From Candidatus Eiseniibacteriota bacterium (GTDB lineage: Bacteria; Eisenbacteria; RBG-16-71-46; CAZAMP01), in contig OZ245046.1 in NCBI GenBank assembly GCA_965224245.1, positions 1,696,001-1,760,000 of the forward strand: DNA of 64,000 bases, written 5' to 3'. A program made the translations under genes and the position numbers. Shown here piece after piece: positions 6,184 to 41,539 of this stretch. The number at the start of each line of letters is the position of its first letter. The stretch's first letter is position 1. The notes below the pieces were generated by a model. The model worked only from the letters and a program-made list of their open reading frames with translations. It ran no database searches and was not told the DNA's origin.

Positions 6184-6226
6184 GCCTCCGGGGCGACGTT
6201 CCGCGCCACCGTCGACGAGAGAGGTC

Positions 6227-22239: not shown

Positions 22240-22243
<4 letters not shown>
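21071..22243 (-). CDS. bcrC: Benzoyl-CoA reductase subunit C
   Basis: [50 protein letters not shown]. Confidence 0.95.
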
Positions 22244-25517: not shown

Positions 25518-26603
25518 TCACGAGCCGCTCGCTCCGTCGGGAACGAGCACGACCCGCTTGGCCAGCTCGCCGCGGTGCGCGGCGTCGAAGGTGGAGTTGA
25601 TCTCGCTCAGCGAGCGTCGCTCGATGAACGGCTTGACGCGGAGACGCCCGTCTGCGATCCACCGGAGGAGCGTCGGATACAGGGTCGGGTCGCTTCCCCA
25701 GACCCCGAACGCGGACGCGTCGAACGCCATGAGGTTGCTGAGGCGCACCTCGAGCCGATCCATCGTGAAGCCCACGATGGCCAGCGTGGCCCCGAACCCG
25801 AGCAAGGAGAACGCCGCCTCCTGCCCGGCCCGGGTGCCGGACGTCTCGTAGATCTTCCAGCCCCAGCTCGGGGCCCCCAGCGCCTCGGCCTCGCTCGCCA
25901 CCCGCTTCCGGAGGTCGCGGCTCGAGAGCTCCCGGGCGTCGATCGCGGCGCGCGCGCCGTGCGCCGACGCGAGCTCGAGCCGTCCCGGGTCGACGTCGAT
26001 TGCCACGACCTTGGCGCCGGTGGCCGCGGCGATCTGGATTCCGTGGATTCCGATGCCGCCGGCGCCCACGAAGACGGCCAGCTCGTCGTCCCCCAGCTCC
26101 GAGCGCACGACCGCCTGGAACGGAGTGGCCATCGCGTCGGAGACCACCGAGAGCTCCCACAGCTCGTGCGTGGCCAGGAGCGCGTCGTCGACCTCACAGA
26201 GATAGCGCGCCGGCACGAGCACGTGGGAGGCATAGCCGCCGTGCCGGTCGTTGCCCGGCATCACCTGCTCGCGGCAGATCCGGAGGTGCCCCGAGCGACA
26301 GCGCTCGCAGCGACCGCAGGGCAGCACCGCGGGCACGACGACGGGCTTGTCGACGAGGCCGGGGTCGGTCTTCTCTCCGACCTCGACGACGGTGCCCGTG
26401 ATCTCGTGCCCCAGAGTCAGCGGGAGATCCGCGCGCGTCTTGACCCCCTGGTAGAGGAACGACACGTCGGTGTGGCAGACCCCACAGCCGGCCACCCGGA
26501 CCAGGGCTTCGCCGGGCGGGACGTCGGGCCACGGCAGCTCGCGCGAGACCATCGGCTCACCGGGAGCCGTCATCACCCACGCCTCGATCGTTCGATCCGT
26601 CAT
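25518..26603 (-). CDS. had: 6-hydroxycyclohex-1-ene-1-carbonyl-CoA dehydrogenase
   Basis: Zn-ADH GVCHTD, GHE, PAVLPCGRCERC, MPGND, RLSNLMAFD; bcr context. Confidence 0.9.
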   Translation of the reverse strand: MTDRTIEAWVMTAPGEPMVSRELPWPDVPPGEALVRVAGCGVCHTDVSFLYQGVKTRADLPLTLGHEITGTVVEVGEKTDPGLVDKPVVVPAVLPCGRCERCRSGHLRICREQVMPGNDRHGGYASHVLVPARYLCEVDDALLATHELWELSVVSDAMATPFQAVVRSELGDDELAVFVGAGGIGIHGIQIAAATGAKVVAIDVDPGRLELASAHGARAAIDARELSSRDLRKRVASEAEALGAPSWGWKIYETSGTRAGQEAAFSLLGFGATLAIVGFTMDRLEVRLSNLMAFDASAFGVWGSDPTLYPTLLRWIADGRLRVKPFIERRSLSEINSTFDAAHRGELAKRVVLVPDGASGS

Positions 26604-28477
26604 GTCTCCGTCCTTTGCTCCGTCCCCGCGGGCGGCGGCGAGGACGTCGGCCTCCCCGTCGCCTCGTGCGTGTCGTCGAACACGAGCGAGCCGCACTCGT
26701 GGCACCGGTCCAGCGTGACGTCCTTGCCGCGGAAGCACCTCCGATCGTCCGGACGCAGACGCATGACCTTTCTCAGGAAACAGCAATCGCACTCGCGCGA
26801 CGGGTCGTAGATCGCCTCGACGTACATCCGGCGGCTCTCGAGGACGTTCTGAACCCGTACCTTCATCGACGGCGTCAGCTCTCCGCTCTCCACAGTGGGC
26901 TCCCGGTCGACCACGGCGAACGCCTGCACGTGCTCGTAGCCGACCTCGTTCGAGTCGTTGAGCCGGGTCACCGCCTCGCGAAACGCCGCGCGCACGACGC
27001 GATCGGCTCTCGCGCGGTCGTCGCCGAACTCCCCCTCGATGAGGAGGTAGTTGGGGAAGATGAGCGCGGCCAGGAAGTCCCGCCCGCTTCCCACCACCAC
27101 CGCGTGCTGGATGTACTTGCACGATCCCACGAGTGCGTTCTCGAGCTTCGTGGGCACGACCTTCTCCGCGTTCAGCATCTTGAACACGCGGTCCTTCCGG
27201 CTGATCAGCCGGAGCCCGTGCTCGCCCAGCGCTCCGAGATCGCCGGTGTGAAACCATCCGTCGCGGAGCGCGGCCGCGGTCGCGTCGGGGTCCCGGTGGT
27301 AGCCGCGCATGACGTTGGGTCCCCGGACGAGGATCTCGCCGTCGCCGGCGATGCGGAGCGTGACCCCGGGGATCGGGCGACCGACCACGCCGGGGACCGC
27401 GCGCGCCTCCTCGGGATCGGTGACCGTGCAGCAGGGAGACGTCTCGGTGAGACCCCACCCCTCGATCACCGGCAGGCCCCGCCGGCCGAAGTACCGGGAG
27501 ATGGTCGCGGGCAGCGGCGCGGCCGCGGTGAAGACGAACCTCAGCCCCTCGTGGAACACCCGCTCCTCGTCCTCGGGATGGGTCTCCACGTGGCTCACGA
27601 GCTGCTGGAAGATCTTCGGAACGCTGAAGTAGACGGTGGGACGGACCTCGCGCCAGTTCGCCAGGAGCACCGGGAGGTCCTTGCCCCGGCTCTCGTCGAT
27701 GACGTAGCGCGCCCCGTTGTAGAGCGCGGTGTACTTCTCGAAGATCCCGCCGAAGCTGTGATGCCAGGGAAGGTACGACAGAAACACGTCGTCGGGCGTC
27801 ACGGACCAGAGCGCGGCCATCGCCCGCTGCTGCGAGAGGATGTTGTCGTGGCTGAGGAGCACGCCCTTCGGCTCGCCGGAGGTTCCGGACGTGTACATGA
27901 GGAGGCAGGGATCGTGTACGTCACCGGTCTCGCCGGCGCGGAAGAGCGCGTCGATCTCGTCGCGGTCCCGCCGGCGAGGCGCGCGGCGGGCGGCCTCGTA
28001 CGTGGAGAGCGCGCCCCGGTACCCCGGAGGCCGCGCCGTCTCCGGAGACCCGGAGTCGAACGCGAGCACGAGCCGGACCGTCTCCGGAAGCGCCATCTCG
28101 CACAGGCGCTCGGCGTCCGGCACGAGCACGGCGAGCGCGCCCGAGTGCTCGATCAGCGCCAGCGCCTGCGCGGGCGAGTAGCCGGCGAAGATGGGCGTGT
28201 ACACCGCGCCGATGCTCATCGTCGCGAGCTCGGCCACGAGCATCTCGGCGCGGTTCGGGCAGAAGACGACGACGCGATCTCGCGGTCCGACGCCGTGCGC
28301 GTGCAGATGGAACCCGAACGCGCGGACGTCCGCCCCCAGCTCGTTCCAGCGGATCCAGCGTCGCCGGCCGTCGCGCTTCTCACCGAGAAGCGGCCGATCC
28401 CCGAACCGCGCGAGGCTCCTTGCCAGGAACGCACCGATGGTCTCGGGCGCTCCGATGGGCTCGCGTGAGGACGTCAT
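26600..28477 (-). CDS. AMP-dependent acyl-CoA synthetase (long-chain type) with Cys-rich tail
   Basis: YTSGTSGEPKG, GWGLTET, FHTGDLG, ELTPSMK. Confidence 0.9.
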   Translation of the reverse strand: MTSSREPIGAPETIGAFLARSLARFGDRPLLGEKRDGRRRWIRWNELGADVRAFGFHLHAHGVGPRDRVVVFCPNRAEMLVAELATMSIGAVYTPIFAGYSPAQALALIEHSGALAVLVPDAERLCEMALPETVRLVLAFDSGSPETARPPGYRGALSTYEAARRAPRRRDRDEIDALFRAGETGDVHDPCLLMYTSGTSGEPKGVLLSHDNILSQQRAMAALWSVTPDDVFLSYLPWHHSFGGIFEKYTALYNGARYVIDESRGKDLPVLLANWREVRPTVYFSVPKIFQQLVSHVETHPEDEERVFHEGLRFVFTAAAPLPATISRYFGRRGLPVIEGWGLTETSPCCTVTDPEEARAVPGVVGRPIPGVTLRIAGDGEILVRGPNVMRGYHRDPDATAAALRDGWFHTGDLGALGEHGLRLISRKDRVFKMLNAEKVVPTKLENALVGSCKYIQHAVVVGSGRDFLAALIFPNYLLIEGEFGDDRARADRVVRAAFREAVTRLNDSNEVGYEHVQAFAVVDREPTVESGELTPSMKVRVQNVLESRRMYVEAIYDPSRECDCCFLRKVMRLRPDDRRCFRGKDVTLDRCHECGSLVFDDTHEATGRPTSSPPPAGTEQRTET

Positions 28478-30617: not shown

Positions 30618-30697
30618 CCCGATCGCGGGTTCCATCCACGTCGGCCCGATCGCGGGTCCTACCCGCGTCGGCCCGATCGCGGGTTCGTTCGCGTCAG
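30618..30697. repeat. Intergenic tandem repeat, 3 x 27 bp
   Basis: CCCGATCGCGGGT core at 30618, 30645, 30672. Confidence 0.85.
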
Positions 30698-31512
30698 CCG
30701 ACGCCCGTGGACGCCGGGTCCGTCTTCAGCTCCAGTACCCTCAGGGCCGCTCCCAGCGCCCCGGTGATGATCGGCTCGGGCACCACCCGCGGCGACAGCC
30801 CCGTCAGCTCGCCGAGCGCCTTCATGACGCCCGGGAAGTACTCGGCCACGCCGCCCGAGATCACCAGGGGATCGCGGAAGCCGCCGATCTCGAACACGCG
30901 GGCCGCGATGGAGTGCACGCAGCCGAGCGCGATGTCCTCGCGGCTCGCTCCCTCGCGAAGCCGATCCAGCACCTCGGAGTTCGCGAAGACCGAGCAGTAG
31001 CTTCCGATCGCGGCCGGCTCGCGCGCGCTGGAGGCCAGCTCCTCGAGCCGCGTCGGGTGCACGTCGAGATGCCGCGCGGCGAACATCAGGAATGTCCCGA
31101 TGCCCAGTGCGCACTTGCGCACCGCACGGTTCGACACCGCGCGTCCTCGATCGTCGACCTCGATGACGGTGGGGTCGCGGCCGCCGATGTCGACCAGCGT
31201 CATCGGGTGTGAGAAGTGGTGAAAGGCGCCGCGGGCGTGGCAGTTCGACTCCCGGATGACGGTCGTCGCGCCGTCGACGCAGGAGGCCCCGAAGCCCGTG
31301 GCCGCGATCGACGACAGATCCCCGCGCCGGACTCCGGCCTCGTCGAGCGCGGCCGCCAGCGCCTCCTCCGCGCGGTCCTGAAAGTACCGGCGCGTGGGGA
31401 CGACGGCCCGCCCCACGAGCGCGTGGTCGTGGTCCATGACGATCGCCTTGACGCACTCGGTGCCGACATCGAGCCCCGCCACGAACATCGTGTCGCTCTT
31501 CATGGTCATCAC
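30694..31512 (-). CDS. Second, divergent acyl-CoA dehydratase activase
   Basis: GLDVGT, ATGFG, CHARG, DIGGRD, RKCALG, SYCSVF. Confidence 0.9.
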   Translation of the reverse strand: MMTMKSDTMFVAGLDVGTECVKAIVMDHDHALVGRAVVPTRRYFQDRAEEALAAALDEAGVRRGDLSSIAATGFGASCVDGATTVIRESNCHARGAFHHFSHPMTLVDIGGRDPTVIEVDDRGRAVSNRAVRKCALGIGTFLMFAARHLDVHPTRLEELASSAREPAAIGSYCSVFANSEVLDRLREGASREDIALGCVHSIAARVFEIGGFRDPLVISGGVAEYFPGVMKALGELTGLSPRVVPEPIITGALGAALRVLELKTDPASTGVG

Positions 31513-31525: not shown

Positions 31526-33805
31526 CTAGCAGCCGGCTCCTACCGATGGGCTCGACGACGCCTCGGCGATCGACTCCTGTTGATCGATGAAGTCCGCGAG
31601 CCGGGTCTGGATCTGATCCATCGAGATCAGTCGAAGATCGTGCGTATCCCCCTCCACGACGATGGATGGAAGCCCCGTCGCACGACTGAGACGAACCTCG
31701 AGGCCGTAGCGCACGTTGCTCTGCTCGGGAGAGGTCCGTCCGTCGTGGTAGAGGGCGGCATCCACCGCGAAGTCGCGGAACTGCGACGCGAGGAAGCCGG
31801 CCTTGTAGTCGTCCGAACGGTTCGGGAAGATCCGGGTGTAGGCGTGGGCCATGCTCTCCAGGGGGTTCGCGCCGTCGAGACCCTCGAGCGCGAAGATCCC
31901 GGTGTACGTGGCCGCCACCACGGCCGTCCGGTGCTCGAGAAACAGCTCGGCCAGCGGACGGAGCGCGCACCAGATGGGTGGACCTTCCCAGTAGAGCCGG
32001 AAGCGCTCGCCGGGAACCGCGGCCTGCTGATCGGCGACCCGCTGCTCGATCTCGGCCTTCAGGATCGTGTAGTACGCCACCGCCTCGGGCGTGCCTCGCA
32101 TCAGAACGATCGGCGCCATGTGGATGAGCAGATCGAAGAACGTCAGCGGCGCGGGCACGGTCCGGGCGAGCTCCAGGATCTCGCCCCACAGACGCGCCGC
32201 CTGGGCCGAGTAGTCCACGATCCGGGACAGCGCGGTCGTGTCGAGGCGCGTGCCCACGATCTCCTCCAGCCGCGCGGTGACGTGCTTGATCTGCTGCACG
32301 GACGCGTCGATCTCGAGCGAGCTCACCTCGCGAAGCGCGGCCGGCGGATGGAGTCCCAGCACCGGAACGGAGAAGCGCGTGCCGTAGTACTCGAACCAGC
32401 GGGCGAGACTGCGGCCGTTGTTCGTGTTGTAGACCACCAGATCGGGATCCGGCGGTCCCGCGATGCCGTAGACCGAGACGAGCGGGCTGTCGCCCACCAG
32501 CATCGCGCCGATGTCGCTCGTCATCGCCGAGCTGGCGAACTGGGAGAAGCCCTCCGCGAGCGCACGCGGGATGTACCGTCCCGCCTGCCGGCTGGCGCCG
32601 ATCAGGGCGGCGTGGTTCTCGGGGAAGTACGGCGTGATCCCGAGCGCCCGCAGGATCTCGACCGGCCCCATCCCCGAGCACCAGGCCACCGGACGATCCG
32701 GATCCTCGGCGGCGGCCTGGACGTCCCGGTAGTAGTCACGCAGGAGCTCCTTCAGCTGGTGCGCGGTCCGGAGCGGCACCCGCCCCTCCACCATCCCGCC
32801 CTCGCGGCTCATCCGCGTGGGCTTCACCGTGACGCGCTCGGTGGTCGACTGGAGGGTGTTCGAGATCTCGCGGCGCCGAAGCTCCTTGAGCCGCTCGCGG
32901 GATCGGATGAAGTGGACCAGCGCCCGGTTGTGCGGCGTGCTGAGACCGTGACGCTCGCCCTCCTCCACGATCGCGCCGTTGATGGCCTCCACCTCGGTGC
33001 GATTGCCCCGCGCGAGGTCCTGCCACATCGAGGGCCGGTTCTTTCCCAGCGCGGTCAGCGATCCGGTCACCGGCCGGAACGGATCCTCCTCGTCCACGAT
33101 CGGGATCCCCCTGGCCTTCATGACGGCGACGATCTCGTTCGTGAGGTCCCGCATGAAGTCCATGAGGTCGGGGTCGTCGAGGAGCTCGCGACACGTGAGC
33201 CCGGTGAGCGCGGACGTCGGGTTCACCACCGCGTTGTGGAGGAGCTTCTGCCAGATCGAGTTGTCGATGTTGTCGACGACCTCGGTGGCGAGGTCGGCTT
33301 TTCGGAACACCTCGGCGATCGTCTGCATCTGCGAGGTCGGGCGGCCCTGGTAGGGCGCGATCTGGATCGGCTTGATGCCGACGCGGTAGCGGAGGCGGTT
33401 CGGCCCGACGTGCTGCACGCTGTGGTAGGTGATCCCGCAGAGCACGCGCTCGGGGCCGACCGCGTCGGCGATCGTGCGCGTGTTCCCGATCCCGTTCTGG
33501 AGACTCAGGACGAGCGTGGACGGCGTCAAGACCGGACTCGTTTCCTCGATGGCGTCCCCGGTCTGGTAGCTCTTGACGGCCAGGAACACGAGGTCCGCGG
33601 GTCCGACGTCGCACGCGCTGTCGAGGACGTGGATGCGGACCTTTCGCTCGGTCCGCCCCGCCTCGGAGATGTACATGCCGTCGTCGTCGAGGAGTCGCGC
33701 GCGCGCGCGATTGCGCTCGATGAAGATCACGTCCTCGCCCGCCTCGGTGAGCTGGGCGCCGATCAGTCCGCCCAGCGCGCCGGCCCCGACGACCACGATT
33801 CTCAT
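31526..33805 (-). CDS. Fusion: ketopantoate reductase (PanE/ApbA)-like domain + 2-hydroxyacyl-CoA dehydratase-like subunit
   Basis: GAGALGG, SLQNG, WQKLLHNAVVNP, SMWQD..RTEVEAING; then PVAWC..PENHAA..VEGD in one open frame. Confidence 0.9.
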   Translation of the reverse strand: MRIVVVGAGALGGLIGAQLTEAGEDVIFIERNRARARLLDDDGMYISEAGRTERKVRIHVLDSACDVGPADLVFLAVKSYQTGDAIEETSPVLTPSTLVLSLQNGIGNTRTIADAVGPERVLCGITYHSVQHVGPNRLRYRVGIKPIQIAPYQGRPTSQMQTIAEVFRKADLATEVVDNIDNSIWQKLLHNAVVNPTSALTGLTCRELLDDPDLMDFMRDLTNEIVAVMKARGIPIVDEEDPFRPVTGSLTALGKNRPSMWQDLARGNRTEVEAINGAIVEEGERHGLSTPHNRALVHFIRSRERLKELRRREISNTLQSTTERVTVKPTRMSREGGMVEGRVPLRTAHQLKELLRDYYRDVQAAAEDPDRPVAWCSGMGPVEILRALGITPYFPENHAALIGASRQAGRYIPRALAEGFSQFASSAMTSDIGAMLVGDSPLVSVYGIAGPPDPDLVVYNTNNGRSLARWFEYYGTRFSVPVLGLHPPAALREVSSLEIDASVQQIKHVTARLEEIVGTRLDTTALSRIVDYSAQAARLWGEILELARTVPAPLTFFDLLIHMAPIVLMRGTPEAVAYYTILKAEIEQRVADQQAAVPGERFRLYWEGPPIWCALRPLAELFLEHRTAVVAATYTGIFALEGLDGANPLESMAHAYTRIFPNRSDDYKAGFLASQFRDFAVDAALYHDGRTSPEQSNVRYGLEVRLSRATGLPSIVVEGDTHDLRLISMDQIQTRLADFIDQQESIAEASSSPSVGAGC

Positions 33806-33847: not shown

Positions 33848-34621
33848 CTACCGGTTCTTCCAGATCGGCTTGCGCTTCTCGGTGAAGGCCGCGAGTCCCT
33901 CCTGCACGTCCTCGGTGATCATCAGCTCTTCCAGAAAGCGGCGCTCCGCGCGTGTGAGCAGCTCGGCGAACGGTCGCGCCTCGGCCAGCCGGAGTGCTCG
34001 CATGTTCATGCGCATGACCAACGGGCTCGCCCGGCGGAAGTCGTCGAGCGTCGCCTCGAGCGCCCCGTCGAGCTCTCCCTGCGGCACCACCCGGGCGACC
34101 AGACCGAGCTCGCGCATGGCCGCGGCGTCGTAGATCCGTCCGGAGGCCGTGATCTCGGCCGCGCGCGCCGGTCCCACGAGCGCCGGAAGCCGGACGACCG
34201 CGACCGGCGCGAAGAACCCCAGCCGGATCTCCGGCTGACCGAACGTCGCGCGCTCGCTGGCCAGGAGCACGTCCGCCATCATGACCAGCTCGAAGCCGGC
34301 ACCCAGCGCCGCGCCGTCCACGGCCATGACGACGGGGACGTCCAGCGCGTCGAGTCGGCGGAACAGCTCCCCGAACGCCCCGATCATCGGGCGGACCTCC
34401 GACGGCGCGTGCTCACCGACGTCGGCCCCCGCGCTGAAGGCCTTGCCGTTCGCGGTGATGGCCACGGCCTTGAGCGAGTCGTCGTGCGCGACGCGGTCCA
34501 GCGCCGCCGTGAGCTCCCTCATCATCGCGGTGGTGAGGATGTTGAGGGGCGGCGCATCCAGCGTGACGTAGGCCACCCCGTCGCGCGTCGTGACCCGAAC
34601 GGTTGCGGTCTCGGTGCTCAT
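33848..34621 (-). CDS. dch: Enoyl-CoA hydratase, probable cyclohexa-1,5-diene-1-carbonyl-CoA hydratase
   Basis: APPLNIL, FSAGADVGEH, GQPEIRLG, EGLAAFTEKRKP; bcr/had/oah context. Confidence 0.75.
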   Translation of the reverse strand: MSTETATVRVTTRDGVAYVTLDAPPLNILTTAMMRELTAALDRVAHDDSLKAVAITANGKAFSAGADVGEHAPSEVRPMIGAFGELFRRLDALDVPVVMAVDGAALGAGFELVMMADVLLASERATFGQPEIRLGFFAPVAVVRLPALVGPARAAEITASGRIYDAAAMRELGLVARVVPQGELDGALEATLDDFRRASPLVMRMNMRALRLAEARPFAELLTRAERRFLEELMITEDVQEGLAAFTEKRKPIWKNR

Positions 34622-35088
34622 GTCTTCACCTTCGGCGGCTCGGTGTCCGGCGTCCGGACCCACGTCGTGCCCGGTCGCTCCAGGCTGTAGTAGACGTGGA
34701 TCTCCTCCATCTCCTCGTACATGCGGGGAACGGCCTGGAGCGGCATCCCGATCTCCAGCGCGTCGGGCGGCGCGCTCTCCCCGAGCGGGGCGAGGAGCCG
34801 TCCTCCGTCCTCGAGGTCGAGCACCCCGACCCAGTAGACCCCGAGGTCCTCGAAGCCCGCGGGGGCGGCGTCGATCCTCGTGTACGTGACCAGCGTTCCC
34901 CGGCCCGAGACCTCGACGTACTCGAACTCGCTCCCGAGACAGCTCGCGCAGTCGGCGCGCGGCGGGAACGTCCGGGCGCCGCACTCGGCACAGCGTGACC
35001 CCATGATCCGGCCGTTCCGCAGGTGTCGCGCGAAGTCGGCGATCTTCGTGTGAGGACAGAAGCTGACCCTTCCGAACCACTCGAACAT
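34618..35088 (-). CDS. Zn-ribbon/OB-fold (DUF35) thiolase partner
   Basis: CAECG..PPRADCASC; adjacent to thiolase. Confidence 0.9.
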   Translation of the reverse strand: MFEWFGRVSFCPHTKIADFARHLRNGRIMGSRCAECGARTFPPRADCASCLGSEFEYVEVSGRGTLVTYTRIDAAPAGFEDLGVYWVGVLDLEDGGRLLAPLGESAPPDALEIGMPLQAVPRMYEEMEEIHVYYSLERPGTTWVRTPDTEPPKVKT

Positions 35089-35091: not shown

Positions 35092-36246
35092 TCACTCCCT
35101 CCGGAACACGTGGACGAAGCAGTACTGACCGATGCCCCCCACGTTGTGCGTGAGTCCGACGTCGGCGTCGGCCACCTGCCGCTCGCCGCACTCGCCCCTG
35201 AGCTGGTGGACGATCTCGGCGGCCATGGACACGCCGGTGGCCCCGATCGGATGTCCCTTCGCCTTCAGTCCGCCGTCCACGTTGACCGGCGTCTTGCCCC
35301 CGACGTACGAGAGCTTCTCCTGGACGAACGCTCCTCCCTGCCCCTTCTCGCAGAAGCCGAGGTCCTCGTAGGCCATGATCTCGGCGATGGTGAAGCAGTC
35401 GTGCACGTCGGCGACCTTCACCCCGTCGGCCTCGATGCCGGCCATCGCGTACGCCTGGCGCGCGGCCTCCCGCGCGGCCGGGAGCCCGGTGAGATCCGGT
35501 CGGCGCAGGACGGACATGCTGGCGCTCGCGCACCCGAGGCCGTCCAGCCACACGACATCGTCGCGCATCGCACGCGCCCGCTCCTCGGAGGCCAGGACGA
35601 GACAGGCGGCGCCGTCGGCGTTCGCGCAGCAGTCGTACACCCGGAGCGGAGAGGCCACGGGGTCCGAGAGGCGCGCCTTCTCGCGCGTGATCTCCTTCTG
35701 GAACATCGCGCACGGATTGCGCGCGCCGTAGTAGTGGTTCTTGATCGCGACGTCTTCCAGCTGCTCGACGCTGGTGCCGTACTCGTGCATGTGGCGATGC
35801 GCGAACATCGCGTAGTAGCCGGGGAAGGTCGTGCCGAACACCGACTCCCACTGTACGTCGCCGACCCGGCCCATGAGGGCGAGCACCTCGGCGGTGCCGA
35901 GCTCGGTCATCTTCTGGCAGCCGACCACGAGGATCACGTCGTGCAGGCCGGAGCCGATGGCCATCCACGCGGTCCGCAGCGCCGCGGAGCCCGACGCGCA
36001 GGCCACCTCGGTGAGCCAGGTCGGCTTCGGGTTGAGGTTCAGGTACTCCTGGATCACGCCCGCCAGCGAGCGCTGCTTGTGGTACTCGGGGACCGAGCCG
36101 ATCACCGAGGCGTCGATGTCCTCGGCCGCGAGCCCGGCGTCCCGGAGGGCCTCTCGGTACGCCTCGAAGGCCAGCTCCTGGACGTTCGCGTCGCTGCGAC
36201 GCCCGAAGGGCGTGTGCCCGACGCCCACCACGCCGACCCGCCTCAT
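35092..36246 (-). CDS. SCP-x-type thiolase
   Basis: EVACASG, HDCFT, GGLKAKGHPIGATG, HNVGG. Confidence 0.92.
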   Translation of the reverse strand: MRRVGVVGVGHTPFGRRSDANVQELAFEAYREALRDAGLAAEDIDASVIGSVPEYHKQRSLAGVIQEYLNLNPKPTWLTEVACASGSAALRTAWMAIGSGLHDVILVVGCQKMTELGTAEVLALMGRVGDVQWESVFGTTFPGYYAMFAHRHMHEYGTSVEQLEDVAIKNHYYGARNPCAMFQKEITREKARLSDPVASPLRVYDCCANADGAACLVLASEERARAMRDDVVWLDGLGCASASMSVLRRPDLTGLPAAREAARQAYAMAGIEADGVKVADVHDCFTIAEIMAYEDLGFCEKGQGGAFVQEKLSYVGGKTPVNVDGGLKAKGHPIGATGVSMAAEIVHQLRGECGERQVADADVGLTHNVGGIGQYCFVHVFRRE

Positions 36247-36277
36247 CGGTCCGGTCTCCTCGATCGCGTCGCGTCCC

Positions 36278-37027
36278 TCACATGTACTGCCCTCCATCGA
36301 CCCGGATCACCGACCCGGTGACGTGCCGCGCGCGCTCGGTGCAGAGAAAGACGACCACGTTGGCCACGTCCTCGGGCTCGGCGAGCCGCCCGAGGACCGT
36401 CTCCTTCATCGACGCGTTCCGGAACTCCGCGGGGATCGCCCGGGCCATCTCGGTCATCACGAGGCCCGGCGCCACGGCGTTGACGTTCACGTTGAACTTC
36501 CCCAGCTCGCGCGCCAGGGCCTTGGTGAGCGCGATGTTCCCGGCCTTCGAGGCGGCGTAGTTGCTCTGGGCGTGCTTGCCGCGAAGCCCGTTGATCGAGG
36601 ACACGTTGACGATCTTCCCGTGTCGCTGGTCCTTGAAGATCCCGGCCGCCGCGCGGTTGTAGTTGAAGTAGCCCTTGAGATTGACGTCGAGAACGCGGTC
36701 CCACTGCGCCTCGGACATCTTCCACACGACCGCGTCGGCGGTGATCCCCGCGTTGCAGACCAGGATGTCGAGGCGTCCCAGCTCCTCTCGCGCCCGCTCG
36801 ACGATGGTCTCGGCGTCGGAGAAGTCGGCCACGTCGGCGGCGTACACCACGCATCGTACGTCCTCGCGCTCGATCGTCTCCCGGAGCCGCTCGGTCTCCT
36901 CCGTGGGCTTCCGGCACACGATCGCCACGTGACACCCCAGTCGTGCCAGCCCGAGGGAGATCGCGGCCCCGATCCCCCGGTTGCCGCCGGTGACGACGGC
37001 GACTTGCCGGTCGAGCTCTCGCTTCAC
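36278..37027 (-). CDS. SDR family oxidoreductase (FabG-like)
   Basis: TGGNRGIG, CNAG, YAASK. Confidence 0.93.
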   Translation of the reverse strand: MKRELDRQVAVVTGGNRGIGAAISLGLARLGCHVAIVCRKPTEETERLRETIEREDVRCVVYAADVADFSDAETIVERAREELGRLDILVCNAGITADAVVWKMSEAQWDRVLDVNLKGYFNYNRAAAGIFKDQRHGKIVNVSSINGLRGKHAQSNYAASKAGNIALTKALARELGKFNVNVNAVAPGLVMTEMARAIPAEFRNASMKETVLGRLAEPEDVANVVVFLCTERARHVTGSVIRVDGGQYM

Positions 37028-37031: not shown

Positions 37032-37994
37032 TCAGCTTCCCTTCAGCTCGGCTCCGCAGCGCCCGCAGTGCTGGAACTGCTCGGGGATCCCCTTCGCGCC
37101 GCAGGCGGGGCAGACGTGGCTCGGCGGACCCCACACGAACTCGCTGCTCCCACCGCTGGCCGCCAGGTCCCGGAGATGGCGGTAGCCGGCCTTTCGCTTC
37201 TCGACGAAGGCCGTCATCCCCTCGTAGGGCTCGGCCGACGTGAAGTGCAGGCTCAGCCAGTCGCGCGCGTGACCGATCGTCGCGTGCCACGCGGTCTCCT
37301 TCCAGTAGTTGAGCTGCTGCTTGGTGTACCGCGTGCACTCGGGGAACTTGTCGATGCAGTGCTGTGCGATCTCTTCGACGGTGTCGTCGAGCTTCTCCCG
37401 GGGCACGACGCGGTTCACGAGACCCCACTCGAGCGCCTGCTTCGCCGGGATTCGCGGGTTCAGAAACAGGATCTCCCGGGCTCGCCGGTCGCCCACGTGA
37501 ATCGAGAGCCACTGCGTCGCGCCGCCGCAGGCCACGCTGCCCACGCTGGTTCCGACCTGCGCGATGTACGTGTCGTCGGCCATCACGGCCAGGTCGCAGG
37601 CCAGCTGCGACTCGTTGCCCCCGCCCACGGCCATGCCGTTCAGCCGGGCGATCGTGACCTTTCCGCTCTTCAGGATGCTCTCGATGTAGCTGGAGAACAG
37701 ACCCATGTACTTCCAGTAGTGACGCGGTCGCTGCGTGTAGATCCCGGCGTACTCCTTGACGTCTCCTCCCGTGCAGAACGCCTTCTCCCCGGCGCCGGTG
37801 TAGACGATGACGCCCACCGCGTCGTCCTCCGACGCGTCCGTGAACGCGGCGATGAGCTCGCGGAGGGTGTCGGTGGTATAGGCGTTGTAGGCCTCCGGAC
37901 GGTTGATGGTGATGCGCGCCACCATGTCCTTCTTCTCGTAGAGGATGTCCTTGAAGGCCATCTCCGCCGCCGGTACCGAGGGGAAGTAGTCCAT
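37032..37994 (-). CDS. oah: 6-oxocyclohex-1-ene-1-carbonyl-CoA hydrolase-like crotonase
   Basis: YNAYTT, AFCTGGDVKEYA, GSVACGGAT; C-terminal CPACG..CGRCG zinc ribbon. Confidence 0.75.
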   Translation of the reverse strand: MDYFPSVPAAEMAFKDILYEKKDMVARITINRPEAYNAYTTDTLRELIAAFTDASEDDAVGVIVYTGAGEKAFCTGGDVKEYAGIYTQRPRHYWKYMGLFSSYIESILKSGKVTIARLNGMAVGGGNESQLACDLAVMADDTYIAQVGTSVGSVACGGATQWLSIHVGDRRAREILFLNPRIPAKQALEWGLVNRVVPREKLDDTVEEIAQHCIDKFPECTRYTKQQLNYWKETAWHATIGHARDWLSLHFTSAEPYEGMTAFVEKRKAGYRHLRDLAASGGSSEFVWGPPSHVCPACGAKGIPEQFQHCGRCGAELKGS

Positions 37995-38662
37995 CACGTC
38001 ATCTCCTTGCGCCCGGCCGGACCGGCCGCTCCGTGGGCTGTGCCGCCCGTGAGACCCGGCAGCACCAGATCGATCATCTCGTGGCCGAGCTCCGCGACCG
38101 GTCCGTCGCGCTCGGGCTCGAACCACGTGAAAATCCAGTTCAACATGCCGAACATGAACAGCGTGTAGTGGCGAACGAGCCGCTCGCGGTGCGGCTCGGT
38201 CATCCCGGCGGGCAGCAGGTCGCGGACGACTCCGGCCAGGATCTTGAAGTACTCGGCCCGGAGTCGCCGGACGCTCTCGTAGAACTCGCCCTCGAGGGAC
38301 TCCAGCTCGAAGGCGCAGACCTTCATCTCGTTGGTCTTCTCGGTGTAGAAGTGGAGGTGGTTCTCCACGAGCCGCTGGAGCTTCTCTCGCGGAGCGGCGT
38401 CCTCGTCGGAGATGGCCTGCTGTCGCTCCAGGAGGACCGAGAACGTGCGGTGCTGGATCTGGAAGAGCAGGTCGTCCTTGCTCTTGAAGTAGTAGTACAT
38501 GCCCGAGAGGCTGAAGCGGGTGACGCGGGCCACGTCGCGGATCGTGGTCTGGTCGTAGCCCTGCCGGGCCATGAGCTCCGAGGCGGCGTCGAGCAGACGC
38601 TCGCGCTTCGTCGGTGAGCCCACGCCGGGCTCAGTCGTCACCTGGGATCGCTCCGGGTCCAA
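37994..38662 (-). CDS. TetR family transcriptional regulator
   Basis: GYDQTTIRDVA..MYYYFKSKDDLL; FGMLNWIFTWF. Confidence 0.93.
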   Translation of the reverse strand: MDPERSQVTTEPGVGSPTKRERLLDAASELMARQGYDQTTIRDVARVTRFSLSGMYYYFKSKDDLLFQIQHRTFSVLLERQQAISDEDAAPREKLQRLVENHLHFYTEKTNEMKVCAFELESLEGEFYESVRRLRAEYFKILAGVVRDLLPAGMTEPHRERLVRHYTLFMFGMLNWIFTWFEPERDGPVAELGHEMIDLVLPGLTGGTAHGAAGPAGRKEMT

Positions 38663-41516
38663 CCATGGCCTCCTGGGTCGACTTCGCGTCCGCCGTGCGG
38701 ACGGGCGCGTTCTCTCGGAGCCCCGCGAGGATCTTCTCGGGGGTGATGGGCAGCTCCGTCACCCGGACCCCGCAGGCGTCGTAGATCGCGTTCGCGATGG
38801 CGCCGATAACGGGCAACAGCGAGCCCTCGCCGATCTCCTTGGCTCCGAACGGCCCGCGGGGCTCGAAGCTCTCCACCGCCACCGACCGGATCGCGGGCGT
38901 CTCGTGGATGCTGGGGATCAGGTAGTCGTGGAGCGTGGGATTGGCGATCGTGCCGTCGGGGCGGACGACGACGTCCTCGAGGAGCGTCTCGCCGAGCCCC
39001 ATGATGACCGCACCCTCCACCTGTCCGTGAAACGTGACGGGATTGATGACGGTGCCCGCGTCGCTGTAGTCGACGACGCGCTCCACGGTCACGTAGCCGG
39101 TCTCGAGGTCCACGTCGACCTCGCACACCGCGGTGGAGAAGCTGTAGGCGGGAGACGTCCCGACGGTCCCGCCCTTGAACGAGCCGCCGAGCCTCGACGG
39201 GGGCCGGTAGCACCCGGTTCCCACCACCGGTCCCGACCGCGCGAAGAGCGCGCGCGCCGTCTCGTCCCACCCGAGCCCCACGTCGGGATGCGTCTCGACG
39301 AAGATCCGTCCCTCGCGCGCCACCAGCGCGCCGGAGTCGCAGCCGAGAACCGAGGCCGCCACCCCGAAGAGCTTGCCGCGAACCTCGGCGGCGGCCGCCT
39401 TCACCGCGTTGCCGGCCATCAGCGTGACCCGGCTCGAGTAGGAGCCGAGGTCGAAGGGCGCGAGCACCGAGTCGCACTCCACGAGCCAGACGCGGTCGTA
39501 CGGAATGCCCAGCTCCTCGGCGGCGATCTGGACCAGGACCGTGTCCGAGCCCTGTCCGATCTCGGCCGCGGCGATGTGGACGGAGACCGCGTTGCCGTCC
39601 TCGTGCACGCGGATCACCGCGTTCGAGTGCGGGAAGTCGGAGCGATGAATCGGATAGCCGGCGCCCGAGACGAAGCCGCCGCAGCTCGCGCCGATCCCTT
39701 TGCCCCGGGGCAGGCGGCCGCGCTTCTCGCGCCAGCCCGACGCCTCGCGCGCCCCTTCGATGGTGGCGCGGAGCTCGCACGACGAGATGTCGAGGTCGTT
39801 GCAGGTCAGGGTGCCGGGATCCATCGCGTTCCGGAGGCGGATCTCCAGGGGATCCAGCCCGAGGTCCTCGGCGATGGCATCCATCAGCGTCTCGAACGCG
39901 AAGCGGGGGTGCGGCACGCCGTGTCCGCGCATGGCGCCCGACGCCGGCAGGTTCGTGTAGACGCGGAGCCCCTGGTAGCGGAAGTGCGACATCTTGTACA
40001 GCGTGGGCAGCATCGAGCCCGCGTAGTACGCGGTGATCACGCCGAACGACGTGTAGGCGCCGCCGTCGAGCACGGTGTGGAGGTCCACGGCCGTGATTCG
40101 TCCGTCGCGGCGCACGCCGATCCGGAGATCCATGTACTGCTTGTGACGCCCGCGGAAGTGCCGGACCATCTCCTCTCGCGTGTAGCGCATCATCACCGGG
40201 CGTCCCGTGCGCCGTGACAGGATCACGGCGCAGAAGTCCAGCGGCGTCGTCTCGGCCTTGACCCCGAAGCCTCCCCCCACCGCGGGACGGATCACGCGGA
40301 TGTTGCCGGTGGGAATGCCGAGCGTCATGGCCAGCGTCTTCTGCACGTAGTAGGGCGCCTGCGCGGACGACCAGAGCGTCACCTTCTCGCCGTGATGCTC
40401 CCAGCGCGCCAGCGACGCGTGGGGCTCGATCGGCGACTGGTAGGTCCGGTTCCCCACGAAGCGCTGCTCGCGCACGTGGTCGGCCTCGGCGAAGCCGGCC
40501 TCCACGTCGCCGAAGTGCCAGTCCACCCGGGTGTTCACGTTGCCCGCGTAGCGCGGGTCCTCGGGATGGATGGGCGTGGCGTCGGGGGCCAACGCCGCCT
40601 TGGGGTCGAACGCGGCGGGGAGCTCCTCGTACTCCACCTCGATCAGCTCGAGCGCGCGCTCGGCCGTCTCCTCGTCCACGGCGGCCACCGCGGCGACCTC
40701 GTCACCGACGTAGCGGACGCGCTCGGTGGCCAGCACGTGCTCGTCGAAGCGCGCCGGGCTCACGCCGTACCGCACGTCCGGCACGTCGGCGCCGGTGATC
40801 ACGTCGAGCACGCCCGGGAGCGCGCGAGCGCGCGAGACGTCGATGCGCCGGATGATTCCGTGTGCGATCGGGCTGGTCAGGATCTTCCCGTGGATCATGC
40901 CCGGCAGCCGGAGGTCCGCCGTGTACGTCGCGCGTCCCGAGACCTTGTCGGGGGCGTCGTAGCGCGTGACGCCGTGGGTGACCACGCGCTGGTCACGCAC
41001 CTGATCTCGCTCGGCATCCGAGGCGGGCGCCGTCGTGAACGGCTCGTCGGCGAACCGCCGCCAGTCGCGGATGGCGGCCACGATCCGGGGATAGGTGCCG
41101 CAGCGGCACAGGTTCGCGCTCAGCGCCTCGCGAATCTCCGCCTCGGTCGGGTCGGGTTTGCGATCGATCAGCGCCTTGGCCGACAGGAGCATGCCGGACG
41201 TGCAGTAGCCGCACTGGAGGGCGCCGTGCTTGATGAAGGACTTCTGCAGCGGATGAAGCTCGCCGCCGGCGCCGAGGCCCTCCACGGTGGTCACGTCGGC
41301 GCCGTCCACGGTCACGGTCAGCGTGAGGCAGGCCATCACCACCCGACCGTCCACGATGACCGTGCACGCGCCACAGTCGCCGAGGCCACATCCCTCCTTC
41401 GTGCCGGTCAGATCGAGCGTCTCGCGGAGGGTGGAGAGGAGGGTGTCGGAGGGCTTCACCGCGATCGCATGTCGTCGACCATTGACGCGAAGCGTGATGA
41501 GCGTCTCCTCCGCCAT
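38631..41516 (-). CDS. hcrA: 4-hydroxybenzoyl-CoA reductase-like fused [2Fe-2S] + molybdopterin subunit
   Basis: GCGLGDCGAC and QCGYC..LCRC, then GGGFG, GAMRGHG, GFVSG, KEIGEG; resembles HcrA. Confidence 0.75.
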   Translation of the reverse strand: MAEETLITLRVNGRRHAIAVKPSDTLLSTLRETLDLTGTKEGCGLGDCGACTVIVDGRVVMACLTLTVTVDGADVTTVEGLGAGGELHPLQKSFIKHGALQCGYCTSGMLLSAKALIDRKPDPTEAEIREALSANLCRCGTYPRIVAAIRDWRRFADEPFTTAPASDAERDQVRDQRVVTHGVTRYDAPDKVSGRATYTADLRLPGMIHGKILTSPIAHGIIRRIDVSRARALPGVLDVITGADVPDVRYGVSPARFDEHVLATERVRYVGDEVAAVAAVDEETAERALELIEVEYEELPAAFDPKAALAPDATPIHPEDPRYAGNVNTRVDWHFGDVEAGFAEADHVREQRFVGNRTYQSPIEPHASLARWEHHGEKVTLWSSAQAPYYVQKTLAMTLGIPTGNIRVIRPAVGGGFGVKAETTPLDFCAVILSRRTGRPVMMRYTREEMVRHFRGRHKQYMDLRIGVRRDGRITAVDLHTVLDGGAYTSFGVITAYYAGSMLPTLYKMSHFRYQGLRVYTNLPASGAMRGHGVPHPRFAFETLMDAIAEDLGLDPLEIRLRNAMDPGTLTCNDLDISSCELRATIEGAREASGWREKRGRLPRGKGIGASCGGFVSGAGYPIHRSDFPHSNAVIRVHEDGNAVSVHIAAAEIGQGSDTVLVQIAAEELGIPYDRVWLVECDSVLAPFDLGSYSSRVTLMAGNAVKAAAAEVRGKLFGVAASVLGCDSGALVAREGRIFVETHPDVGLGWDETARALFARSGPVVGTGCYRPPSRLGGSFKGGTVGTSPAYSFSTAVCEVDVDLETGYVTVERVVDYSDAGTVINPVTFHGQVEGAVIMGLGETLLEDVVVRPDGTIANPTLHDYLIPSIHETPAIRSVAVESFEPRGPFGAKEIGEGSLLPVIGAIANAIYDACGVRVTELPITPEKILAGLRENAPVRTADAKSTQEAMVGPGAIPGDD

Positions 41517-41539
41517 ACGGCTCTCCTCCACTCCCGGGG

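Follow-up and report, generated by a model that had tools for sequence, protein, structure and literature searches.

What does a reductase of the ketopantoate family do within a protein that also carries a domain of the 2-hydroxyacyl-CoA dehydratase family? The question is posed by one gene in a 64,000-nucleotide stretch of Candidatus Eiseniibacteriota DNA (contig OZ245046.1, positions 1,696,001 to 1,760,000; the whole stretch is referred to here as the window). To our knowledge, the radical 2-hydroxyacyl-CoA dehydratases and class I benzoyl-CoA reductases (BCRs), textbook cases of ATP-driven chemistry at very low potential, are known from little more than a handful of fermenters and denitrifiers. 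A first, sequence-only reading of the window had described a single 759-aa frame joining a ketopantoate reductase to a dehydratase-like subunit, and knew of no characterised enzyme built in this way; our targeted literature searches for ketopantoate/2-dehydropantoate reductase in connection with 2-hydroxyacyl-CoA dehydratase or benzoyl-CoA likewise found no description of this architecture. The gene and its parts are as follows:

31526..33805, minus strand: fusion gene P0001 (759 aa, ATG start), consisting of a PanE/ApbA-type reductase, a linker and a Cys-less α-type HGD-D domain (α′)
32891..33805, minus strand: PanE/ApbA-type NAD(P)H reductase domain (aa 1-305), matching TIGR00745
32771..32839, minus strand: interdomain linker (aa 323-345), poorly conserved
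31571..32770, minus strand: HGD-D domain α′ (aa 346-745), with S, G and S at the three positions of the cluster cysteines of HadB/BzdO and of the partner subunit

One gene for reductase and HGD-D domain

The fusion is a genuine, recurrent single gene. All three Pfam domains that the sequence-only reading had expected are found on the one 759-aa ORF, each far over its cut-off: ApbA at aa 3-152 (124.9 bits, cut-off 22.2 bits), ApbA_C at aa 179-303 (125.1 bits, cut-off 22.7 bits) and HGD-D at aa 380-741 (166.3 bits). The GC3 of the entire frame is 0.91, comparable to that of the adjacent genes. Both halves share one frame in all 80 related loci that we fetched; the span is free of any stop in 75 of these, and the sole stop in the remaining five, at aa 738-769, marks where the protein naturally ends. 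Among the 429 database matches (E<=1e-3), the best 120, the query's own included, are 748-806 aa long and carry PF06050, PF02558 and PF08546 in each case, and the fusion is present in at least 113 species genomes. Logan contigs from three runs of one sample each span 31526-33805 unbroken and with 0 differences, these runs possibly including the source data of the assembly itself, and a contig from a second sample covers 31934-33341, crossing the junction. An assembly or frameshift artefact, with homologues that are always separate genes, is thus ruled out by the 80/80 in-frame relatives and by the contigs across the junction. The linker between the two halves is 42-65 aa long among the relatives, and its predicted structure has a pLDDT below 50 at aa 324-339.

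The two HGD-D proteins and their ATPases

Downstream of the fusion lie the genes for a second HGD-D protein, two activator-type ATPases and a CoA ligase, the first four genes of the module being ordered fusion, ATPase 2, α, ATPase 1:

30694..31512, minus strand: activator-type ATPase 2 (272 aa), over the cut-offs of BcrAD_BadFG and TIGR00241
29375..30607, minus strand: α subunit P0002 (410 aa), a HadB-like HGD-D protein with [4Fe-4S] cysteines C86, C124 and C351
28564..29364, minus strand: activator-type ATPase 1 (266 aa), over the TIGR00241 cut-off
26600..28477, minus strand: AMP-forming acid-CoA ligase (625 aa), with an AMP-binding_C_3 domain and a Cys-rich C-terminal tail

The cluster ligands of BzdO are Cys95/128/380, and HadB coordinates its cluster in the same way (PMC11971306). 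The three cysteines of α align with those of HadB and are invariant in 44 orthologues, and all three ligand columns hold Cys in 50/50 orthologues. In the fused HGD-D domain, by contrast, cysteine occupies the three [4Fe-4S] ligand columns in 0/75, 0/75 and 7/75 fusions, so that two of the columns lack it in all 75; the catalytic cluster must therefore reside in the separate α subunit. The dehydratase-like half proposed by the sequence-only reading is thus there as an HGD-D domain, but one that would be incapable of radical chemistry by itself.

Judged by sequence, the fused domain is an α-type (HadB/BcrB-like) paralogue belonging to one old clade in the tree, with BcrB falling outside this clade. 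HadB (3o3m_A) ranks first among solved relatives for both HGD-D proteins (E 4.7e-51 for α and 1.9e-34 for the fusion), with MbdO and BzdO well behind; α scores 177 bits against HadB as compared to 81 against MbdO and 75 against BzdO. At the equivalog level both proteins stay under the cut-offs: the fusion scores 171.2 and α 197.2 with the HadB model NF052455 (cut-off 750), and the two HGD-D proteins score 110.7 and 126.6 with TIGR02260 (cut-off 486.55) and 56.5 and 76.2 with TIGR03191 (cut-off 448.6). A β (HadC/BcrC-type) identity of α′ is ruled out by its 43% identity to α and by its top models, HadB and BcrB, and a double-cubane protein by scores of 27-47 bits against a cut-off of 350 and by the three-Cys pattern. 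We dropped BzdO His131 as a discriminator between BCRs and 2-hydroxyacyl-CoA dehydratases: the window's own BcrB has Phe at this position, and α has Val. Genome-wide, HGD-D matches four proteins, namely BcrC, BcrB, α and the fusion, and there is no distinct HadC/HgdB-type β subunit among them.

Structure prediction of the fused domain with α, a check proposed by the sequence-only reading, pairs the two with a score of 0.78 as compared to 0.00 for the best control, a mark reached by 58/80 solved complexes and 2/110 mismatched pairs. Contacts agree between runs by at least 95%, and partner pLDDT is at least 91. This result is best taken as likeness of the predicted pair to the solved HadBC and BzdNO dimers, not as proof of pairing. 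In loci that lack α, an α homologue (52-58% identical) is encoded elsewhere in the genome in 5/5 cases.

The two ATPases are co-conserved paralogues, 39% identical and each with its own signature. ATPase 2 is encoded immediately downstream of the fusion in 71/71 loci with sufficient sequence, and both bridging cysteines are kept in 64/64 ATPase 2 sequences and in 39/39 sequences of the other ATPase. With the Bcr/Bzd equivalogs the ATPases score 72-105 bits, against cut-offs of 313-578. The 2-hydroxyacyl-CoA dehydratases that we know of have one homodimeric activator only.

The reductase domain and its partners in other lineages

TIGR00745 (apbA_panE) matches the reductase domain over aa 2-305 with 252 bits (cut-off 141.35). 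The motifs picked out by the sequence-only reading are all in place (GAGALG at aa 7-12, WQKL at 185-188 and RTEVE at 269-273), and the catalytic residues, which we take to correspond to Lys176, Glu256 and Asn98 of E. coli KPR, are retained: G7, G9, G12, N104, K187, S259, D263 and E271 are invariant among 60 fusions, and T270 is nearly so (at least 90%). Solved relatives of this half include 3hwr (E 2.2e-37) and 3wfi (E 6.3e-23). No PanE equivalog reaches its cut-off, the best being NF005091 with 199.8 against 252. The KPR family takes in D-2-hydroxyisocaproate and D-mandelate dehydrogenases (bioRxiv 10.1101/2024.01.05.573888), and as products of this type are those that the present class of dehydratases uses after CoA activation, family membership favours a role as a 2-oxoacid reductase. 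The sequence-only reading had suggested physical coupling of 2-oxo reduction to radical dehydration, possibly on the CoA ester; the retained residue set of free 2-oxoacid reductases and the CoA ligase of the operon both favour reduction before CoA activation, the ATPase fusion of Bacteroidota described below being a point on the other side.

The PanE-like reductase occurs in four arrangements: as a fusion with the Cys-less domain, with a Cys-bearing HGD-D domain (P0127) or with an activator ATPase, and as the product of a separate neighbouring gene. The ATPase fusion is found in Bacteroidota and accounts for 23/46 PanE-like matches in loci L081-L158; in Thermoplasmata a stand-alone PanE-like gene lies beside genes for HGD-D, ATPase and ligase. 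N104, K187, S259, D263, T270 and E271 are all kept in 23/23 ATPase-fused proteins, the same six in 20-21/21 stand-alone neighbours, and the columns invariant in the fusions across the 44 PanE-like neighbours of these other arrangements. Recurrence with different members of the complex would be a Rosetta-stone pattern for association of reductase and dehydratase, and the fusion to the ATPase in Bacteroidota points to physical membership in an enzyme complex. Among 123 ORFs around 17 α-only relatives there are 16 activator ATPases, six AMP-forming ligases and six ATP-grasp_5 matches, five ORFs have further matches to two domains of ADP-forming ligases, Succ_CoA_lig and CoA-binding, and just two are a second HGD-D protein.

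Could the domain simply be the ketopantoate reductase of the cell's housekeeping, attached to an enzyme that depends on CoA, with the fusion being catalytically meaningless for the dehydratase? In support of such a role, no other PanE-family match in the genome, which is 97% complete, passes its cut-off, and panB and panC are found elsewhere in it. The fusion is, however, part of a catabolic operon 1.2 Mb away from panBC, misses every PanE equivalog cut-off and has relatives that accompany the HGD-D/ATPase module in all four arrangements, in bacteria and archaea alike; in many bacteria, moreover, ketopantoate is reduced by IlvC. We regard the housekeeping role as very improbable.

Genomic setting and a proposed reaction sequence

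The remaining genes around the module are:

33848..34621, minus strand: enoyl-CoA hydratase, immediately upstream of the fusion
34618..35088, minus strand: DUF35-type zinc-ribbon/OB-fold protein (ChsH2-like)
35092..36297, minus strand: SCP-x-type thiolase
36278..37027, minus strand: SDR (FabG-like, 3-hydroxyacyl-CoA / 3-oxoacyl reductase type)
37032..37994, minus strand: BadI/Oah/MenB-like crotonase with a C-terminal zinc ribbon, 74-81% identical across phyla
37994..38662, minus strand: putative TetR-type regulator, assigned by sequence and conserved position
38631..42412, minus strand: 4-hydroxybenzoyl-CoA-reductase-like molybdenum enzyme, with 2Fe-2S and Mo subunits fused and the FAD subunit separate
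25518..26603, minus strand: 6-hydroxycyclohex-1-ene-1-carbonyl-CoA dehydrogenase (Had)
17681..22243, minus strand: canonical Thauera-type benzoyl-CoA reductase genes bcrC, bcrB, bcrA and bcrD, 9 kb from the fusion

The hydratase gene directly precedes the fusion in 47/67 loci, and α follows ATPase 2 in 41/65. Proteins of the DUF35 type are the usual partners of SCP-x thiolases. Had scores 431.6 with TIGR03201 (cut-off 338.65) and is present in 47/80 related loci, and a homologue of the 4-hydroxybenzoyl-CoA-reductase-like enzyme in 35/80. BcrC (500.7, cut-off 421), BcrB (688.6, cut-off 486) and BcrD (366.1, cut-off 313) pass their equivalogs, with BcrA slightly under (560.2, cut-off 578). The module is surrounded by central benzoyl-CoA genes, not by aminotransferases. 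A six-frame scan of the window for CxxCxxCxxxCP, as the mark of a ferredoxin that might donate electrons, gave no match.

We see about an even chance that the module converts a 2-oxoacid via the (R)-2-hydroxyacid and its CoA ester to an enoyl-CoA, with aryl-pyruvates that feed into benzoyl-CoA as the probable substrates. The fusion would then be bifunctional, serving as reductase and as scaffold subunit in an ATP-activated ketyl-radical enzyme of four proteins (2-hydroxyacyl-CoA dehydratase type, presumably a heterotetramer). Its N-terminal domain would use NAD(P)H to turn the free 2-oxoacid into the (R)-2-hydroxyacid, the AMP-forming ligase would form the CoA ester, and α, bearing the sole substrate-facing [4Fe-4S] cluster, would dehydrate the ester to the 2-enoyl-CoA. 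The cluster-less α′ domain would stand in for the usual β subunit, forming the dimer with α and anchoring the reductase, the ATP-driven injection of electrons would fall to the pair of paralogous ATPases, and the adjoining hydratase, SDR and SCP-x thiolase/DUF35 pair would β-oxidise the enoyl-CoA. Because of the benzoate-degradation setting, phenylpyruvate and 4-hydroxyphenylpyruvate are the likeliest substrates; their products would be cinnamoyl- or 4-coumaroyl-CoA, to be processed further to benzoyl- or 4-hydroxybenzoyl-CoA. A route from phenylpyruvate via cinnamoyl-CoA to benzoyl-CoA has been no more than speculated upon for a benzene degrader, with the fusion unmentioned in the text of that source available to us (PMC13416013).

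Several observations count against this sequence of reactions. The operon ligase is of the long-chain/FadD type and of no known aryl-acid ligase type, Anaeromyxobacter-type loci have a different ligase (26-28% identical), aminotransferase neighbours are lacking, and the equivalog-level HMMs for HadB, BcrB and PanE all stay under cut-off. With CoA ligation falling between reduction and dehydration, the fusion would allow no direct channelling of substrate, and fusion to an ATPase, as in Bacteroidota, is odd for a reductase that has to sustain the flux of the pathway if it provides no more than an upstream step on the free acid, and hints at action within the complex. The PanE-type domain might be no upstream pathway enzyme but an integral catalytic part of a new kind of ATP-driven ketyl-radical machine, using NAD(P)H to act directly on the complex-bound CoA ester; for example, it may trap the keto tautomer of a dearomatised hydroxy-aryl-CoA, or set the 2-hydroxyl on a 2-oxoacyl-CoA. 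Such a role, which we consider rather unlikely, would explain the independent fusions to cluster-bearing subunit, cluster-less subunit and activator ATPase, and would, if true, mean an unrecognised anaerobic ring or aryl-acid route in Acidobacteriota, Gemmatimonadota, Myxococcota, Bacteroidota and others.

The two distinct, co-conserved ATPases and the 2+2 gene set, which resemble those of benzoyl-CoA reductase, a stoichiometric reductase, also count against a dehydratase. The module may instead be a BCR-like, ATP-dependent reductase of a substituted aryl- or cyclic enoyl-CoA such as hydroxybenzoyl-CoA: a ketyl/Birch-type reduction by α, for which the ATPase heterodimer would hydrolyse ATP stoichiometrically, would leave a ring ketone on the CoA ester for the PanE-type domain to reduce, and ring opening would fall to the hydratase, the SDR and the BadI/Oah-like hydrolase. 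The location between BadK/H/I- or Dch/Oah-like genes and Had is in line with this, as are the methylbenzoyl-CoA reductases (PDB 9g87), a precedent for BCR paralogues dedicated to substituted rings, and the fusion of the reductase to various complex members, the ATPase among them, would suit a complex-bound intermediate. We nonetheless doubt it: α is closer to HadB than to MbdO or BzdO, the cluster-less partner leaves no six-Cys [8Fe-9S] site as in BzdN, the reductase has lost none of the residues in the set of free 2-oxoacid reductases, the genome already has a complete BcrCBAD, and the relatives in Thermoplasmata and elsewhere have CoA ligases and no adjacent bcr genes in the fetched loci.

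A further possibility, quite unlikely in our estimation, keeps the preferred chemistry with 2-oxoglutarate and (R)-2-hydroxyglutarate as substrates, so that the module would link 2-oxoglutarate with glutaconyl-CoA, which strict anaerobes form in the lower benzoyl-CoA pathway. The HGD-D family owes its name to 2-hydroxyglutaryl-CoA dehydratase; the Anaeromyxobacter-type module adjoins a lower-pathway hydroxyacyl-CoA dehydrogenase/hydratase and thiolase; and a Thermoplasmatales locus has, 3 kb from the module, a carboxyl-transferase gene of a family that presumably includes glutaconyl-CoA decarboxylase α. The AMP-forming ligase, however, suits activation of an acid and not the reverse direction, and neither a glutaconate CoA-transferase nor a decarboxylase was found in the window.

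If the aryl-lactate route is the correct one, phenylalanine and tyrosine carbon would enter anaerobic ring reduction; a BCR-like function would mean a new dearomatising or dehydroxylating enzyme. Either way, the present annotation as '2-dehydropantoate 2-reductase' misleads metagenome-based metabolic models. The module represents a widespread third layout, in which one lineage of an α-only clade has arrived at an α/α′ pair with a dead partner, completed by a pair of specialised ATPases and by an NAD(P)H reductase in covalent attachment; it lies within the benzoyl-CoA clusters of phyla that are common in soil and sediment.

Comparison with known systems

The double-cubane protein DCCP and its ATPase DCCP-R (PDB 6ENO) resemble the wider clade in that one HGD-D type is paired with one ATPase; they differ in the double-cubane score given above and in having six ligand cysteines where α has three. 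The KPR family, including the misnamed PanE proteins that are D-2-hydroxyacid dehydrogenases (D-2-hydroxyisocaproate in Lactococcus lactis, D-mandelate in Enterococcus; PDB 3WFI), resembles the fusion in that the latter matches both KPR domains over their full length and has the glycine motif and the conserved catalytic Lys/Glu/Asn/Ser/Asp. Unlike in these proteins, the domain here belongs to a longer chain (759 aa in the fusion, 611 aa in the ATPase-fused form of Bacteroidota) and scores under every PanE equivalog cut-off.

The class I BCRs (BcrABCD / BzdNOPQ / MbdNOPQ; PDB 8S02, 9G87) share with the module, by gene count only, two HGD-D-type subunits and two different BcrAD-type ATPases; further likenesses are location within a benzoyl-CoA cluster and an active-site subunit in which three cysteines hold the [4Fe-4S] cluster and the Glu of a P-E-N motif is conserved. 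We know of no BCR with a fused reductase. The BcrB/BzdO models give only 57-127 bits against cut-offs of 449-487, true BcrCBAD is separately present in the genome, and the module's second subunit is cluster-less, whereas BzdN has a six-Cys [8Fe-9S] site (PMC11971306).

The module also has much in common with (R)-2-hydroxyisocaproyl-CoA dehydratase HadBC of Clostridioides difficile and its activator HadI (PDB 3O3M): HadB ranks first among solved structures for both HGD-D proteins, its three-Cys [4Fe-4S] site recurs in α, and the activators are of the same family, with bridging cysteines. The proposed order of 2-oxoacid reductase, CoA activation and dehydratase is also that of HadBC-type pathways, with analogues in phenyllactate (FldH/FldA/FldBC/FldI) and 2-hydroxyglutarate (HgdH/GctAB/HgdAB/HgdC) metabolism. 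In contrast to HadBC, the module has a Cys-less α-type paralogue in place of a HadC/HgdB-type β, a covalently fused reductase of the PanE/KPR family in place of a D-2-hydroxyacid dehydrogenase, two different ATPases in place of one and an AMP-forming ligase in place of a family III CoA-transferase, and the fusion is hosted by Acidobacteriota, Gemmatimonadota, Myxococcota and similar phyla as opposed to fermenting Firmicutes.

The fusion gene and its junction

The fusion protein is encoded on the minus strand (31526–33805) by a single ORF with an ATG start (759 aa), in which Pfam places three domains, each far above cut-off:

aa 3–152, ApbA domain
aa 179–303, ApbA_C domain
aa 380–741, HGD-D domain

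With the NCBIfam apbA_panE subfamily model the protein reaches 252 bits (cut-off 141), and GC at third codon positions is 0.91 over the whole frame, with similar values in neighbouring genes. A word-indexed search across 5.8 billion proteins gave 429 matches at E ≤ 1e-3; the best 120 of these, the query's own row included, are 748–806 aa long and carry the three Pfam domains in each case, and the 119 besides the query are 60–68% identical to it. With each GTDB species represented by one genome, 113 of 142 candidate stretches encode a relative, and 80 loci were retrieved. The two halves share a frame in all 80: the span is free of stops in 75, and in the other five the stop, at aa 738–769, is the natural C-terminus. 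The junction is genuine, which confirms the single-frame union of a reductase and an HGD-D domain (ApbA + ApbA_C + HGD-D) described in the sequence-only reading. For each of three runs of one sample, Logan contigs span the entire gene without a difference, and a contig of a second sample bridges 31934–33341; as these contigs, built independently, may yet derive from the assembly's own source data, the 80 loci are the stronger evidence. In an AlphaFold2 model of the fusion (60-row alignment; mean pLDDT 88.4, pTM 0.70) two confident domains are linked by a long helix (aa 291–322) and a disordered linker (aa 324–339, pLDDT below 50); the linker is the least conserved part of the protein, ranging from 42 to 65 aa among relatives.

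As judged by its residues, the reductase half looks catalytically intact. The motifs GAGALG, WQKL and RTEVE, named in the sequence-only reading, are all found in the protein; G7, G9, G12, N104, K187, S259, D263 and E271 are invariant among 60 fusions, and the LQNGxGN, WQKLxHN..NP, RPSMWQDL and TEVE motifs are at least 97% conserved among 75. Among the best 120 of the 429 matches, the only name that databases give the fusion is ‘2-dehydropantoate 2-reductase’. A housekeeping role of the PanE domain in pantothenate synthesis seems very improbable to us, even though this domain is the genome's sole PanE-family match over cut-off, with panB and panC adjacent to each other 1.2 Mb from the window (G000:C1:509414-511049). 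Members of the ketopantoate reductase (KPR) family that reduce a 2-oxoacid to its (R)-2-hydroxyacid include the D-2-hydroxyisocaproate dehydrogenase of L. lactis and the D-mandelate dehydrogenase of Enterococcus, according to a preprint (bioRxiv 10.1101/2024.01.05.573888).

The HGD-D half, its partner and its origin

[quoted passage not shown] The three HadB cysteines align with C86, C124 and C351 of alpha (P0002), the 410-aa partner HGD-D subunit, and cysteine occupies each ligand column in 50/50 alpha relatives. In the fusion the three ligand columns hold S, G and S, and among 75 fusions cysteine is found in 0, 0 and 7, respectively. As an iron-sulfur protein, the HGD-D half is thus incomplete. 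The sequence-only reading, in which an apparently intact KPR joined to a dehydratase subunit suggested coupled 2-oxo reduction and radical dehydration, is supported in part: for the reductase half, but not for the other. The fused domain is 43% identical to alpha over 401 residues, and the models it matches best are those of HadB and BcrB rather than of HadC or BcrC; by sequence it is alpha-type, and we name it alpha'.

Residues still conserved around the lost cysteines map to predicted alpha/alpha' interface segments (aa 418–424, 461–473 and 688–704). Interface constraint may explain this conservation, and a retained ligand pocket therefore need not be assumed. Modelling supports the alpha'/alpha pairing: the predicted complex scores 0.78 versus 0.00 for the best control (a score reached by 58/80 solved complexes and 2/110 mismatched pairs), with at least 95% contact agreement between runs and partner pLDDT of at least 91. 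Since solved HadBC and BzdNO dimers exist, the prediction shows likeness only.

The C-terminal 420 aa of the fusion, used in an exhaustive HMMER search, matched 1271 representatives; in an alignment of 107 full-length ones, the cluster-less pattern is restricted to the fusion clade and a handful of scattered sequences, P0175 among them. P0175, an unfused 413-aa HGD-D protein of another lineage, has Q, G and N in place of the three cysteines and is placed among alpha-only proteins, at the end of a very long branch (2.17). In a tree of 98 HGD-D rows (quick search, SH-aLRT support only, BcrB as outgroup), all 20 sampled alpha' domains form one clade (support 100) on a long stem (0.69), within a 99-supported clade of 78 rows shared with the alpha-only family; today's alpha partners fall at three places among ordinary alpha-only proteins. 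By this placement alpha' arose once, long ago, and did not come from recent copying of its partner.

Gene neighbourhood and wider module

In minus-strand order, the cluster comprises:

First in the cluster (−), TetR-like gene, named by sequence and position only
37032–37994 (−), BadI/Oah-like crotonase
Next (−), SDR, SCP-x thiolase, its DUF35 partner and enoyl-CoA hydratase, in this order
31526–33805 (−), fusion
30694–31512 (−), ATPase 2
29375–30607 (−), alpha
28564–29364 (−), ATPase 1
26600–28477 (−), AMP-forming CoA ligase
Next (−), 6-hydroxycyclohex-1-ene-1-carbonyl-CoA dehydrogenase (Had; TIGR03201, 431.6 vs cut-off 338.65)
Between Had and the bcr set (−), hydroxyacyl-CoA dehydrogenase/hydratase and thiolase
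Next (−), canonical bcrCBAD: BcrC 500.7 (cut-off 421), BcrB 688.6 (487), BcrD 366.1 (313)
17217–17705 (−), GNAT acetyltransferase, directly after bcrD
38631–41516 (−), upstream of the TetR gene, 4-hydroxybenzoyl-CoA reductase (4-HBCR)-like molybdenum enzyme, its 2Fe-2S (gamma) part and molybdenum (alpha) subunit forming one fused protein
41540–42412 (−), FAD subunit of the 4-HBCR-like enzyme, its match to the HcrB model limited to the first 120 positions out of 321

BcrA (560.2, cut-off 578) and the fused gamma/alpha protein (909.9 bits, cut-off 994.55) fall below threshold. In this position the GNAT gene is reminiscent of BadL in the Rhodopseudomonas bad cluster. The 6.94-Mb genome (97% complete) has four HGD-D matches only, every one inside the window. 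The two ATPases share 39% identity and differ in their conserved nucleotide-motif signatures; both cluster-bridging cysteines are kept in each (39/39 and 64/64). Most conserved in the cluster is the crotonase (74–81% identity across phyla), which has a CxxC...CxxC zinc ribbon at its C-terminus and scores only ~189 bits against cut-offs of ~465 for the BadI and Oah models. The ligase, of the long-chain/FadD11-like type, carries an AMP-binding_C_3 domain, and its C-terminal tail is Cys-rich (CDCC ... CHEC); its identity is 54–59% in type-A loci and 40–45% in Bacteroidota, and an unrelated ligase replaces it in Anaeromyxobacter-type loci. The aromatic cluster is flanked by three large Ser/Thr protein kinases whose repeats are TPR or WD40-like (2203–5520, plus strand; 9053–11443 and 49902–52550, minus strand), an LVIVD-repeat protein (13010–15436), an FG-GAP-repeat protein (46179–49775) and a PAS-domain sigma-54 activator (6227–8170).

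Across relatives, ATPase 2 directly follows the fusion in 71/71 loci with at least 1.1 kb downstream, and is itself followed by alpha in 41/65 and by Had in 20/65. The hydratase lies immediately upstream in 47/67; Had occurs anywhere in the locus in 47/80 and a 4-HBCR-like alpha gene in 35/80. Genomes without alpha in the locus encode a full-length homologue elsewhere (5/5, 52–58% identity).

P0127 (728 aa, a metagenome representative) is a second kind of PanE-HGD-D fusion, with all three cluster cysteines kept. Its relatives are encoded in 268/298 stretches, of which 80 loci were kept (78 new); in L081 and L082 the PanE-like and HGD-D genes adjoin in the same order and reading frame with a stop codon between. 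In benzoyl-CoA clusters of Bacteroidota and Ignavibacteriota, the genes run bcrC, bcrB, a pair of ATPases, ligase, one alpha-type HGD-D and a 611-aa ApbA + ApbA_C + BcrAD_BadFG protein, followed by thiolase, Had, Oah-like and hydratase genes. This protein, a PanE-like reductase fused to an activator ATPase, accounts for 23/46 PanE-like matches; it directly follows the single Cys-bearing alpha-type gene, in L104 (11211–13046, plus strand) as in L095, L102, L106, L109, L116, L118, L120, L142, L145, L158 and others. Catalytic reductase residues are kept in 23/23 ATPase-fused and 20–21 of 21 stand-alone PanE-like copies. In Thermoplasmata, ATPase, HGD-D, AMP ligase and stand-alone PanE-like genes adjoin; in L132, a Thermoplasmatales chromosome, this set is flanked (5368–6975 and 13785–15008, plus strand) by an aldehyde:ferredoxin oxidoreductase, a pyridine-nucleotide-disulfide oxidoreductase and a carboxyl-transferase, to whose family glutaconyl-CoA decarboxylase alpha belongs. 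Many Desulfobacterales, Planctomycetota and others have only HGD-D and ATPase adjacent. The 123 ORFs neighbouring alpha in 17 alpha-only loci include 16 activator ATPases, six AMP-forming ligases, six ATP-grasp_5 matches, five ORFs that also match the Succ_CoA_lig and CoA-binding domains found in ADP-forming ligases, four hydratases and only two second HGD-D genes.

Proposed function and comparison with known systems

A PanE-type reductase and an acid-CoA ligase recur together with an alpha-type HGD-D enzyme and an activator. The 2-hydroxyacid route leads from a 2-oxoacid through the (R)-2-hydroxyacid and its CoA ester to 2-enoyl-CoA, and is most likely how the module works; we infer all activities, the substrate and the stoichiometry. 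The KPR-family reductase would turn the 2-oxoacid into the (R)-2-hydroxyacid, the ligase would form its CoA ester, and the alpha-type enzyme with its activator would convert this to 2-enoyl-CoA, which the hydratase, SDR and SCP-x/DUF35 thiolase beside the fusion could beta-oxidise. With the 4-HBCR-like enzyme, BcrCBAD and Had, every gene would have a role, from aryl-pyruvates to benzoyl-CoA and beyond. A version of the same chemistry acting on 2-oxoglutarate and 2-hydroxyglutaryl-CoA we consider improbable.

The CoA-ligation step would part the reductase's product from the dehydratase, which counts against the 2-hydroxyacid route, and the fact that the reductase is found fused to three different complex members, activator included, suggests that it works within that complex. 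These fusions, the two specialised ATPases and 2+2 layout, which recall stoichiometric benzoyl-CoA reductases (BCR), and the setting amid central ring-pathway genes therefore make a serious, if rather unlikely, rival of a BCR-like reductase that would act on a substituted ring and whose PanE domain would reduce the ketone so formed. Against it, alpha is far nearer HadB than MbdO or BzdO, its partner alpha' has no relay cluster, and the reductase keeps the residue set for a free 2-oxoacid.

We found no description of the PanE-HGD-D architecture in the literature searched. Class I BCR has the same gene count, whereas the module lacks the relay-cluster subunit. From its genes, we liken the module's working to that of the 2-hydroxyacyl-CoA dehydratase system, from which it differs in having no beta subunit, no cluster in the fused domain and no equivalog-level score. 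Compared with the known 2-hydroxyacid route, a ligase takes the place of the CoA-transferase, and a KPR-family reductase that of the D-2-hydroxyacid dehydrogenase.
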